A stretch of DNA of 64,000 nucleotides, from NCBI RefSeq assembly GCF_013167455.1, contig NZ_CP038328.1, one strand, 5' to 3'. Shown piece by piece: positions 46,901-52,900 of the stretch. Position numbers: made by a program. The DNA comes from Escherichia coli O157:H7. Its GTDB lineage: Bacteria; Pseudomonadota; Gammaproteobacteria; Enterobacterales; Enterobacteriaceae. The number at the start of each line of letters is the position of its first letter. Within the stretch, counting starts at the first letter, position 1.

Positions 46901-49900
46901 TATCACCACGCGGGAGGAATTAACCGAGGCCAGTAATGAACTGTTCTCTTTGATTGCCAGCGGTGTGATTAAGGTCGATGTCGCCGAGCAGCAGAAATAT
47001 CCGCTGAAGGATGCGCAGCGTGCGCATGAGATTCTGGAAAGCCGCGCGACGCAAGGTTCCAGCCTGTTGATTCCATAAAAGAAATAGGGCTTCCACCTGG
47101 GAAGCCCTTTCTTTTTATAGTTCGGCTGTATGTAGGGTACAGCACGATGAATCTGTTAGAGGCGCAATAGTGACAGATTTGATTATCAATTCCTATTTTG
47201 TTCTAAGGATAAAACCTTAGGTTGTGATCATCCGCACAATCCCTTAGTAACGCCAGCGGTCATAACGCTGATATTTCGGCACTTTTGGTGCTTTAATCGC
47301 CTTAATAACCCACACCACCGCAATCGCCAGGAGTAACCACGGCAGCAACTTAATCATCAATGCCAGCATACCGCCGAGGAACATAATGGCCGTCGCCACA
47401 ACCAGCGCGGCGATAATGCCCAGCAACGAAACGCCGGTGACCATCAACATGACAAAAAAGCCAATCACAAAAAGTAGTTCCAGCATGATGCTCTCCCAAA
47501 TATGAAATCTCTTGCAGGCATTACAAGAATCATGCCAAAAATAATCTATTGATTTAACAGCAAAACGCCCCGCGACGGTGCGCAGGGCGTGGTGAATTTG
47601 ACTACTTTTTGGTGAAAAGTTAACGCTTATCCGCCACCAGTTTGAGCGCGTGTTCCAGCACGTTAATGTCTGCACCCGCTTTATGGGCATTTTCACTTAA
47701 ATAACGCCGCCACTGCCGCGCGCCAGGAATACCCTGGAACAAGCCCAACATATGCCGGGTAATATGGCCAAGATACGTCCCCTGGCTGAGTTCACGCTCA
47801 ATGTACGGATACATGGCGCGCACTACCGCCACCGGATCGGCATCGGTATCCGAGGAACCAAAGATCTCTCGGTCTACCGCCGCCAGAATACCCGGATTCT
47901 GATACGCTTCGCGCCCGACCATCACGCCATCCATATGTTGCAAATGCGCTTTAGCCTCTTCCAGCGACTTGATACCACCGTTAATCGACATCGTCAGATG
48001 CGGAAAGTCACGCTTCAGTTGATACACACGCGGATAATCGAGCGGCGGGATTTCACGGTTTTCTTTCGGGCTTAACCCCGAAAGCCAGGCTTTACGTGCG
48101 TGGATGATGAACATCTCACACTCGCCTTTGCCGGAAACGGTGTTGATGAAATCGCAGAGAAATTCATAGCTGTCCTGGTCATCGATGCCAATACGCGTTT
48201 TCACCGTCACCGGAATCGACACCACATCGCGCATCGCTTTCACGCAGTCGGCAACCAGCTGCGCATTACCCATCAGACACGCACCAAACATGCCGTTCTG
48301 CACCCGGTCAGACGGGCAGCCGACATTCAGGTTGATCTCATCATATCCACGCGCTTCTGCCAGCTTCGCACACTGCGCCAGCGCCGCCGGATCGCTACCG
48401 CCGAGTTGCAACGCTACCGGATGTTCTTCTTCACTGTACGCCAGGTAATCACCTTTACCGTGAATAATCGCCCCTGTAGTCACCATTTCGGTATACAGCA
48501 ACGTATTGCGGGAAAGCAGACGCAAGAAATAGCGGCAATGTCTGTCCGTCCAGTCGAGCATGGGAGCAATGCTAAACCGAGAATTCCAGTAAACACCAGT
48601 TTTTTCAGGCATCACGCTGGTTTGATTAATTTTTAGTGTTTCATGATTATCGTGCATTTTTGAACATTTCAGGCTATTTTTCTCGCGTTAGGTTCCCGCA
48701 CAGGTTCCCACGTTTTATGGGAACCCGAAATAACGAGGTCGTGTAATGGCGTACTATAACATAGAGAAACGACTAAAATCCGATGGCACACCACGCTATC
48801 GCTGTAATGTGATTATCAAAGAAAAAGGTGTTATCACTTACAGGGAAAGCAAAACATTCCCTAAACATGCTCATGCCAAAACATGGGGCACACAGAAAGT
48901 GATGGAATTAGATCTATATGGCATTCCATCATCAAATGCAGTTGACGGACTTACAGTCCGTGACTTACTACACAAATATTTAAATGACCCAAATGCCGGA
49001 GGTAAAGCAGGCCGTACTAAAAGATATGTGCTGGAACTGCTTATGGATAGTGACATCTCCGCGATCAAACTATCTGAACTGACAGAAAATGACGTAATTG
49101 AACATTGCAGGCTAAGAAACAACGCTGGTGCAGGTCCAGCTACAGTTAGCCACGATGTTAGTTATCTTGGCAGTGTTCTGGATGCTGCCAAACCTGTATA
49201 TGGAATTAATTACACATCAAACCCAGCGAAAAGCGCTCGCCCATATCTACTTAAACTTGGTTTGATTGGTAAATCAAACCGTCGTAATCGTAGACCAGCA
49301 TCTGATGAACTGGACATGCTCATTGAAGGCCTTCAACAACGATCTACTCATAAATGCTCAAAAATTCCGTTCGTTGATATCCTCAAATTTTCTGTGTGGT
49401 CCTGTATGCGGATCGGAGAAGTATGCCGGTTACGATGGGAAGATCTCGACCAGGAACAAAAATCTATACTCGTAAGAGACAGGAAAGATCCACGCAAAAA
49501 GGAAGGCAACCACATGAAAGTAGCCTTGCTTGGGGAAGCCTGGGATATCGTCCAACGACAGCCCAAAAAATCGGAATTCATTTTTCCATATAACAGCACT
49601 TCTGTTACTGCAGGATTTCAGAGGGTAAGAAGCAAATTAGGTATTAAAGATCTGCGATACCATGATTTGCGTAGAGAAGGGGCAAGTCGCTTATTTGAGG
49701 CTGGTTTTAGTATTGAGGAAGTCGCTCAGGTTACAGGGCATCGTTCATTAAACGTGCTATGGCAGGTATATACCGAACTGTATCCGAAATCTTTACATAA
49801 TCGTTTTGAAGAGCTCCAAAGGAGCAGAAATAAGACCTCTTGACACTGTTTATCCATACAGTTAAAAATAATACTGTATACAAACACAGTATAGAGGGAC

Positions 49901-52900
49901 TTTTATGCGTATTGAGATCTGCATAGCCAAAGAAAAAATGACTAAAATGCCAAACGGTGCTGTGGATGCGTTAAAGGAAGAATTAACCCGACGCATCAGT
50001 AAGCGTTATGACGATGTAGAGGTGATCGTAAAAGCCACCAGCAACGATGGCCTTTCTGTTACGCGCACCGCCGATAAAGATTCAGCTAAAACTTTTGTTC
50101 AGGAAACTCTGAAAGATACCTGGGAGTCTGCTGACGAGTGGTTTGTTCACTAATTAACACGTAAAATCGGTAACGGCTGGAAATCATTCAATACTCGCAC
50201 TATCGAAAGTTCGCCAGCCAGCCGTAGCACGTTCTTGCATACGACGTGCCGCGGATCCTATTATTCTAGTATGAAATCCCTAACCGATTTCAAATTCTCC
50301 AGACTGCTCAGATTCTCTTTTATCCCACGCTGGCGCTGATAAATCTCGTCATTGCAATCGACCTGCGCTATCGCTGCCGCAGTTCTTCCAGTTTCTGCAT
50401 CGATAACTCCATCTTCTGAGCAATAAACCTCACCTATGCAATATTTTATGTCAATTATTTCAATTGCATTAATATCTTGAATGGATTACATAGAGTTAAT
50501 GTATCCAGTACTCCCTATTCTCTTGCATATAATACATGTTGCAACTTACATCTCAGCGCTATGAAAAAACACCACCTCTCTCTTTATGAAATTCTGGATT
50601 TACCAAGCGCTAATTTATCATTTCAATCTACCTTTAAGCATTGCATTTATCTCCCTACGAGGTCATACTTTAGGAAGTTAAATATGAATGATAATATACC
50701 TACAGCGCGAAATCACAAACAATCGACTTGTATTACAGAAAAAAACATGCCTATCTTTTTAAACTTCACAGCAGGCAGTATCTTACCTGAGAATGAGCTA
50801 GCATCTTTACGTTATATTGTGCAGCAAAATCAAAATGATACTGTAATCATAAAAGAACGTTATAAAATGGATATCCGTTATATCGAATCAGTCAATGGTT
50901 TTACAGTAAATCCTGTATGCAGTAATCATTTCTCCATATTTATGGCGAGACAAAACACTATTGCTCGCAACCTGGAACAGCAGATCAACAACGGACGAAG
51001 TTTTGCACAAATATCTCAGGATTTTATGCTTCAATTATCTTCAAATATAGGATGGAAAAAAGGGGCCGAAAACGCCCTTAAAAATAAAATCCATTCTCAT
51101 TCATTTGTTGTAAATCCTGATGAATTCTCTTGCGACACACAATTTCTTAAGTGCCCAATAACATTATGCGTTCCAGAAAAAGGGGTTTTTGTCAAGAACG
51201 CACTGAACTCCAACATATGCACTCTTTATGATAAGTCTGCGTTCATGAATCTCACAAGAGAACATCTACCCCACCCTCTCAGCAGGGAAAAGATAGTAAA
51301 AGAAATGATTATTGAAAGGAATATGTGTTATTTTGACACCATAAGTCAGCATTTCATAATTATGGATGCAGACCAACAGAAACAGCATTGTAAATAAAAT
51401 GTAATAATTACATACTATTAGTGATTCTCATGCATCGTAAGCGGCTCGCCAGAACCGTATTGATATTTACTGAGCGCTCAGATCAACTTTCCATGGCAAC
51501 AGATCGCGTACCCGGTTTGCCGGCCAGTCCTGGATATGCTCCCGCCGACAATATTAATGGCCAGGAAATGTTTAAAACAATGATTCTGTTTCCTAACCAT
51601 CAAGTGTATATGCTGGCTCAATTACTCAATATCTATGGGTTGAGTTCTACCCAAAGTGGCTCTGTAGTCGCTTCTTCTTACAGTATGTTCAGGTGTTGCA
51701 GGCACAGTTGTGGAGCGTAGATGCGTTGTTGGTTTACCATGCTCTGGTACATAAAAAACGCCAGTGCCATGGTAACCTGATATAGAAACGTTAATTCCGC
51801 GACGTTCAAACTCGGCATAGACGTGTTCTGCTAAAGACCTCTTTTGACCAAATAATGCCCTGGCCAACCAGCCGTTATTCATATTTGCGGATTTTTCTAT
51901 TTCATCAGGAGAGAAGTCTTTGTTTTTTATTATGTTGGCTGAGTTACAGGATGTTAATCTGATATCATCTATTTCATGAAGATTATGTTGAACAATGCGG
52001 TCGACAATATCTGACGGTGATAAAAATTCATCTCCGCACTTAAGAAGAGGTAGACCAGCAGAACCATGCCCAGACAGATAAATTTTGTTGTATTTTCCTG
52101 GTGTTAAATCATCTGGCAGGATGGTTTTCATCTCTGTCGCTGTAATACTTATAGCTGCAGCAGCAACAACATCGCTATTACTTGATTGTAGATGGCTTTT
52201 ATTTGCTCCAGGATATGTAAACTCCATTTTCCTTTTATCAAAATCTTGTTTTGTAGCATCATTCAGGAATAATAAATCATACGGTTTTTTCCCGTTGTGA
52301 CTCTTGAAACATTTTGGCCAAGAATATTAAGAGTATAGTCATTAACGGATTTCATTCCTAAAAAAACAAGTAATCCTTCTTTCTCTTGCGCTTTTTCGAT
52401 TGTTCTCCCTGCTAAAGTTATTGGGATGGATTGAGATTGTTTTGTCGGAACTGATACGCTGGCGCTAATAGGTAGTAGGGTTCTTATGCTAAACATACAA
52501 CCTCTTTCTTAATTTTCGAACCTGTTTAGGATTCTGTGTAAATTCAAAATAAACCTGTCTGAACATTCCTAACAAACATCCACCGGACATGACAACAAAA
52601 ACCGGAGCCGGACTCCGGTTTTTGTGAAGCTGTCGGCTATTTCATTCCGCCAATATTTTCCCACGTCCCGTCAGCACGCAGGATTTGCAGCGGTCTTACC
52701 ACGCACTGTATCTGCTTTTTATCCGCATCCAGTATCACCACCTGTGTGATTACCCTGTCCTGCTCCGGGATAATGCCATTCTCATCTGACTCCAGAATGT
52801 CTGCCGGTCCCAGTCGCAGCTGTGCTGTAAGTAACTCCCCGTGTTCACGGTCATCATGCTTTCCGCAACCACACAGACGCTGCATAAGTTTTTTTAGTAT

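Follow-up and report, generated by a model that had tools for sequence, protein, structure and literature searches.

A DinI-like gene behind two LexA boxes, next to the integrase gene of a lambdoid prophage in Escherichia coli O157:H7

The dinI-like gene and its promoter

We analyzed a stretch of 64,000 nucleotides from Escherichia coli O157:H7 (assembly GCF_013167455.1, contig NZ_CP038328.1), referred to as the window throughout, with regard to a short dinI-like gene and the promoter that precedes it. The left 46 kb of the window consist of E. coli core genes, running from phn, mdtNOP, fdhF, nrf, acs, soxRS, ssb, and uvrA to dnaB, qorA, pspG, and dusA. Past dusA, the gene order is integrase, DinI-like gene, nleG7, frameshifted espS, tail fibre genes, lom, and J, and a lambda-like prophage inserted in E. 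coli dusA carries the DinI-like cassette at its integrase-proximal end. The features of this end are as follows.

48746..49843, + strand: tyrosine integrase gene, from the open reading frame (ORF) list, NCBIfam and PHROG matches, and the RefSeq annotation of the identical locus
49840..49845, + strand: -35 hexamer TTGACA (consensus), from the promoter scan, the blastn break points, and the "putative promoter" annotated at the homologous stretch of the Shiga toxin 1 (Stx1) prophage VT1-Sakai (AP000400)
49844..49863: LexA box 1, CACTGTTTATCCATACAGTT, filling the spacer between the -35 and -10 elements; pattern match, 21.7 bits with a position weight matrix
49863..49869, + strand: -10 region TAAAAAT, from the promoter scan and matching the promoter annotated in AP000400
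49872..49891: LexA box 2, TACTGTATACAAACACAGTA, lying over the expected transcription start; pattern match, 23.2 bits with the same kind of matrix score
49894..49899, + strand: Shine-Dalgarno sequence GAGGGA, read from the sequence, 5 nt before the ATG
49905..50153, + strand: DinI-like ORF of 82 amino acids, from Pfam, PHROG, and PDB matches
50175..50254, + strand: 3' region with two hairpins (50175-50219 and 50222-50254), from RNA folding (z = -2.0) and an alignment of 40 downstream variants

A sequence-only reading of the window had pointed to an 82-amino-acid DinI-family ORF next to the integrase, with a perfect LexA box (CTGT-N8-ACAG) placed 14 bp upstream of it. Full-length Pfam, PHROG 189, and PDB matches bear out the family assignment, the integrase ends 61 bp before the ATG (49905), and the box that had been noticed, box 2, is a real one that ends 13 nt before the ATG. 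That reading had listed a single box, however, and missed box 1, so that two operators are present where one had been claimed. The strict CTGT-N8-ACAG core of box 1 occupies positions 49846-49861, and the -35 hexamer of the dinI-like promoter shares nucleotides with the integrase stop codon (TGA, 49841-49843). The -10 region can be read either as TAAAAA with a 17-bp spacer or as AAAAAT with an 18-bp spacer, and the promoter has 10 of 12 consensus matches.

The CTGT-N8-ACAG pattern occurred twice in the 64-kb window, both times in the dinI-like promoter, with 0.61 occurrences expected. Sites were scored with a rough palindromic weight matrix built from 24 LexA operators of E. coli K-12. The two boxes ranked first and second in the window, followed by the uvrA/ssb LexA operator (TACTGTATATTCATTCAGGT, 36360-36379; 20.0 bits), which served as an internal positive control and is itself part of the training set, and by a fourth site at 10.5 bits. 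Both boxes scored above the median of the training operators, and no site reached the score of either box in 200 composition-preserving shuffles of the window. Because only these two core matches were present and the shuffles never reached their scores, a chance origin of the boxes is excluded. The heterology index, an approximate one that was likewise built on operator sequences, was 3.2 for box 2 and 5.6 for box 1, inside the range of working operators. As in the SOS regulon, operators of the TACTGT-N8-ACAGTA type overlap the promoter, one in the spacer and one over the start, and LexA bound at either box should, to judge from these positions, exclude RNA polymerase.

Extent, conservation, and 3' end of the cassette

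We delimited the cassette by comparing 80 IMG/VR loci whose encoded protein is nearly identical. It spans approximately 49838-50254: the promoter and its two operators come first, the ORF next, and last a 3' region, some 100 nt long, in which the two hairpins lie. In blastn alignments, homology often started at 49838-49843, that is, at the -35 hexamer, and ended at about 50227-50254, the 3' region with its GC-rich second hairpin (50222-50254) forming the right end of the cassette. The flanks differed among elements: the cassette follows int in the window, stands right after attL in yehV in VT1-Sakai, has int on one side and the cdt genes on the other in phage cdtI, and is found at the end of the genome, before effector genes, in BP-4795. 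It is also present on some plasmid and phage-plasmid records, and the same gene is annotated in mEp460, YYZ-2008, BP-4795, 2H10, and dozens of Stx1a, Stx2a, and Stx2c phages. On this comparative evidence, the cassette is a lambdoid "moron", the same promoter-bearing unit set in differing flanks.

The operators were conserved along with the gene. Among 25 distinct upstream variants from 63 loci, 24 were properly aligned (a Klebsiella locus, L088, was misaligned), and substitutions in this region fell in the N8 spacers and the flanks. CTGT and ACAG of box 2 were kept in all 24, and the only changes in the core of box 1 were CTGG, an accepted half-site found in VT1-Sakai-type variants, and ACAA in BP-4795; box 1 was conserved in cdtI, PhiR12_5, VT1-Sakai, and BP-4795. 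Further, 9 diverged phage loci (E. coli, Salmonella, Klebsiella, Yersinia, and Aeromonas) were compared. At every one of them, the unit of the DinI-like gene was headed by a LexA box, with scores of 15-26 bits, and these heading boxes were the only, or nearly the only, strong ones at those loci.

Selection on the ORF was purifying, with a ratio of nonsynonymous to synonymous substitution rates (dN/dS) of 0.08-0.21 against four homologues, and the 35 distinct sequences of intact ORF variants among the fetched loci encoded only eight proteins. Of 5426 complete E. coli genomes, 1408 contained at least 80% of the cassette, and the number of matching places in one genome reached 9, a count that includes a decayed copy near the core gene ykgJ. 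To judge from its sequence, the DinI-like gene is a maintained, functional coding sequence. It is highly improbable that the LexA-like palindromes are chance occurrences or relics and the ORF a decaying remnant. Such a view could draw on the pseudogenes that are frequent at prophage ends, here the frameshifted espS and the tail-assembly fragments, as well as on the decayed copy near ykgJ in nearly all E. coli. It is contradicted by the score statistics, in which the two best LexA matches of the 64 kb lie exactly over the promoter and none of the 200 shuffles reached either, and by the purifying selection on an intact and widespread ORF.

At least 22 complete genomes of Shiga toxin-producing E. 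coli (STEC) of the O103, O111, O121, and O145 groups carry the 781 bp spanning the cassette with 100% identity. The whole prophage end had a perfect match in no complete genome, the best being 99.1% identity over 15.3 kb in the O145:NM strain FWSEC0002. In the O103 strain RM8385, the element at the same site is 97.5% identical and is a Stx1a-converting lambdoid prophage. We used this prophage as a proxy for the portion beyond the window, where the window prophage has its own repressor and any stx genes. The RM8385 repressor combines a helix-turn-helix domain (HTH_3) with a Peptidase_S24 domain, and because of these two domains we assign it to the RecA-dependent, self-cleaving CI type. The RM8385 prophage also carries, in the early right operon (L002, 10529-10855), a second small ORF of about 108 amino acids named "LexA family transcriptional regulator", besides the CI-type repressor.

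At the 3' end of the cassette, most relatives have a T-run after the second hairpin (for example, CTGCGGTTTTTCTTTTT), and per-variant folds of these sequences resemble an intrinsic terminator. In the window and its nearest relatives, homology breaks directly past the stem, and the T-run is lacking (GGATCCTATTATTC; region 50222-50270). Simple scans found no canonical intrinsic terminator after dinI or before nleG7. A search for known RNA families in 49700-50800 returned only a sub-threshold match to CssrB on the minus strand (24 bits vs a gathering score of 76), and a scan of the whole window with Rfam placed nothing near the dinI-like locus.

This 3' end bears on the possibility, in our judgment a slim one, that the dinI-like gene is the leader of a longer SOS transcript whose payload lies downstream, here nleG7. 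The layout would be that of the prophages Gifsy-1, -2, and -3, in which LexA-controlled dinI-antirepressor-irsA operons begin with the dinI homologues (Lemire et al. 2011, PMC3121763). In favour of a leader role, a single promoter is annotated for H0001 (DinI) and H0002 in VT1-Sakai; dinI, ORF84, and nleA are co-directional in BP-4795; and the hairpin after the window dinI lacks the T-run common in relatives. Between dinI and nleG7, the + strand contains neither a canonical terminator nor any promoter-like site that reaches 9 of 12 matches. Against a leader role, the gap of 590 nt holds only + strand ORFs of 34 and 24 amino acids, which begin at TTG codons and are situated outside the conserved cassette, and a search downstream of dinI for a Gifsy-like antirepressor or any conserved ORF found none. 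Homology stops at the hairpin, and the cargo behind it varies by phage and is convergent in cdtI, PhiR12_5, and P18-100. Moreover, the CI-type self-cleaving repressor of the closest complete prophage needs no antirepressor. That nleG7 always stands behind the dinI promoter was ruled out: strain 139 has the hairpin region and nleG7 without dinI or the LexA promoter.

Predicted RecA contacts, known relatives, and the proposed role

The protein of the DinI-like ORF is identical to RefSeq WP_001217539.1, named "DinI-like family protein", and to gp30 of phage cdtI. It matched the Pfam DinI family (PF06183) over all 63 model positions (1-63; E 1.5e-19), PHROG 189, "RecA filament binding protein DinI" (E 4.4e-31), and the E. 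coli DinI structures 1GHH and 7YWA at full length (residues 1-81; E 8e-13). Identity to E. coli DinI is roughly 40%, counted from the alignment. The DinI equivalog model of NCBIfam (NF007893) gave 72.5 bits, compared with a curated cut-off of 111, and because of this lower score we regard the product as a paralogue of chromosomal DinI.

Cryo-electron microscopy and mutagenesis have identified L13, L21, W71, W77, F78, E24, E69, and D76 as the residues of E. coli DinI that contact RecA (Gao et al. 2023, PMC9926225); the first five make up a hydrophobic pocket, and the last three are acidic. In the HMMER alignment, the corresponding residues of the DinI-like protein are M15, L23, W73, W79, F80, E26, D71, and E78, so that 5 of the 8 positions are identical and the other 3 carry conservative replacements. 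The window protein and E. coli DinI share fold family, length, RecA-contact residues, and a promoter of the LexA-repressed kind; they differ in location, chromosomal vs prophage, and the window gene has two strong operators. E. coli dinI has one LexA operator, and for Salmonella dinI two are listed, the second being weak.

The closest described counterparts lie in other phages, and neither this type of cassette nor its sequence family is new. In the GenBank record of VT1-Sakai (AP000400), H0001 bears the name "DNA-damage-inducible protein I", and directly upstream of it a LexA "putative SOS box" is marked together with a "putative promoter of H0001 and H0002". The H0001 protein is 96% identical to that of the window, with the same -35 and -10 elements, two palindromes, and a 13-nt gap between box 2 and the ATG, and it too is found in a lambdoid Stx1 prophage at the att-proximal end, beside the tail-fibre and cargo region. 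Unlike in the window, the VT1-Sakai cassette has no adjacent integrase, the annotated SOS box corresponds to box 2 only, and a YkgJ-like ORF follows rather than nleG7. Its boxes are also weaker, with CTGG in box 1 and scores of 15.8 and 17.8 bits vs 21.5 and 22.9 bits for the window when both were scored with one matrix. In phage cdtI (NC_009514), the 100% identical gp30, annotated as "RecA filament binding protein DinI", has both LexA boxes at 22.9 bits each, whereas the flanks differ, with int/orf31 on the opposite strand upstream and a convergent cdtCBA downstream.

Experimental data come from the Gifsy prophages, whose DinI-family genes likewise stand behind a LexA box, 19 nt before the ATG. 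There, the DinI protein accumulates after mitomycin C, and damage-dependent activation is lost when the LexA-box region is replaced (PMC3121763); the dinI transcripts rise 4.6- to 23-fold under nalidixic acid. The Gifsy genes differ from the window gene in protein sequence (42% identity), in their place in the early region after the replication genes, and in having a single box. A prophage-inducing antirepressor follows dinI in Gifsy, where the repressors are uncleaved, whereas no antirepressor ORF follows dinI in the window and the repressor of the related RM8385 prophage is of the self-cleaving CI type.

A second group of LexA-controlled phage genes with a DinI-like domain comprises Tum of coliphage 186 and the split Tum of PSP3 and Fels-2, and PHROG 189 spans both these and the window gene. 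Tum (about 146 amino acids) has an N-terminal antirepressor half, whereas the window protein, with 82 amino acids, has neither such a half nor a partner ORF and matches only positions 71-149 of the 151-position PHROG 189 profile. In the Yersinia phage YeP1 (L090, 1673-2243), we observed a LexA box (AACTGTATTTATATCCAGTA, 26.2 bits) followed by a 91-amino-acid ORF and then a DinI-like gene, an order that, from its gene content, looks like the split-Tum arrangement of antirepressor and then DinI, as reported for PSP3.

We consider it very likely that LexA represses the window cassette, a moron, and that the product of the cassette binds in the groove of the RecA filament in the manner of DinI. 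We infer the LexA control from the Gifsy dinI homologues and the RecA binding from E. coli DinI. A sigma-70 promoter (TTGACA, a 17-18 bp spacer, and TAAAAAT) would be blocked by LexA dimers at the two operators; upon DNA damage, RecA filaments would form, LexA would cleave itself, and the promoter would open to give the 82-amino-acid DinI-like protein. This protein would then settle in the groove of the RecA filament, its hydrophobic pocket accepting F203 of RecA loop L2 and its acidic residues facing the K232/R243/K245 patch of RecA. LexA, UmuD, and lambda CI share these RecA elements, the L2 F203 and the K232/R243/K245 patch. Because of this shared surface, the DinI-like protein could stabilize or occupy the filaments, compete with CI-type repressors, and modulate RecA-dependent cleavage. 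Any effect on the induction of the window prophage itself is speculative. The proposal of the sequence-only reading, an SOS-controlled RecA modulator encoded by the prophage, is supported at the level of sequence by the prophage genes around the cassette, the conserved operators, the retained RecA-contact residues, and the LexA-controlled Gifsy homologues.

Several points weigh against a LexA-repressed, RecA-binding cassette. The -10 hexamer is imperfect, the weight matrix is a rough one and the heterology index an approximate one, and the protein does not reach the cut-off of the DinI equivalog model. That it acts on RecA is an assumption, and non-polar deletions of the dinI homologues in Gifsy-1 and in Gifsy-3 did not significantly alter induction (PMC3121763). 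In the searched literature, we found no LexA-binding or expression experiments on the E. coli/Stx-phage cassette, and the one preprint naming dinI concerned the chromosomal gene, not the prophage cassette.

Some of these points would also fit an SOS-controlled gene whose protein has diverged, either toward a target other than RecA or into a nearly neutral passenger with no measurable role. The sub-cut-off score and the limited identity to E. coli DinI, the Gifsy deletions without an induction phenotype, and the position of the gene amid exchangeable cargo genes are all consistent with such a protein, which we nevertheless hold to be unlikely: all 8 RecA-contact positions are identical or conservatively replaced, purifying selection is strong, and the pairing of a LexA box with a DinI-like gene has been kept across genera. 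The LexA-repressed moron with a RecA-binding product stays our preferred reading, and the cassette is a real, if ordinary, one that is probably functional.

Since prophage DinI-like genes behind LexA boxes have been annotated in VT1-Sakai, named in RefSeq and PHROGs, and characterized in Gifsy, the finding matters little past correct annotation. Three details are new here: a further operator, located in the promoter spacer; the exact limits of the cassette; and the finding that RecA-contact residues are conserved. It had been put forward in a paper on Stx2a phages that phage dinI, if expressed, would limit induction, the same hypothesis as that of the sequence-only reading. The wider question, which has been proposed in print and is not specific to this locus, is whether multiple LexA-controlled DinI-like copies in STEC tune RecA-dependent prophage induction and toxin release. 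Two more far-reaching readings are, taken together, doubtful. STEC genomes hold several copies of the cassette with its two operators; if these acted as a collective, SOS-timed brake, the copies would occupy the RecA-filament groove and delay self-cleavage of the CI-type repressor and hence Stx-phage induction. If LexA-controlled transcription read through into nleG7, the int-dinI-nleG7 layout without a terminator T-run would couple effector expression to DNA damage.

Neighbouring genes and the ykgJ copy

Other features in and outside the window are listed here.

50747-51397, + strand: nleG7, an intact type III effector gene
51622-52496, - strand: espS pseudogene, frameshifted
11841-11895, 14364-14434, 24956-25027, and 32268-32408: Rfam matches in the window
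2440-2660 of locus L092 (E. coli 7FA): decayed dinI-like copy between ecpE and ykgJ, also found in L093

The insertion point of the prophage is the 5' end of dusA, and the integrase gene points away from dusA (47620-48760). An insertion in dusA with the integrase reading outward presumably fits the described family of dusA-associated integrases. No tRNA genes were found in the 64-kb window, and the Rfam matches above the gathering score were a SECIS element (in fdhF), two naRNA4 (CssrE), and the sRNA sraL.

The copy near ykgJ is part of the core genome. Of the 5426 complete E. coli genomes, 5242 match only the final 58 nt of the dinI-like ORF and the next 97 nt (50096-50250), at about 85% identity, in a stretch just upstream of ykgJ, which is a decayed dinI-like pseudogene with the stop codon TAA changed to GAA and weaker similarity further upstream. 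Its hairpin stem carries a compensatory change, GTACGT/ATGTAC vs GCACGT/ACGTGC, as compared with the window. In VT1-Sakai a YkgJ-like ORF comes after DinI, so that the locus at ykgJ in the core genome has the look of an ancient fossil of the dinI-like cassette. A "capsid protein" pseudogene fragment of 87 bp (29 codons) annotated by RefSeq/PGAP at 50150-50236 on the - strand overlaps the 3' hairpin region, and the same label is attached to the ykgJ fossil in a K-12 record; this fragment is probably an annotation artefact.

An AT-rich effector locus (approximately 33-37% GC) extends over 50747-52496 and separates the dinI cassette from the tail fibre genes, and the RefSeq annotation records both the tail-assembly fragments and the espS frameshift at this end of the prophage. 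Beyond it, a tail fibre ORF (52908-54227, - strand) contains long collagen-like Gly-X-Y repeats, with a local GC content of up to 70% at about 53150-53450.

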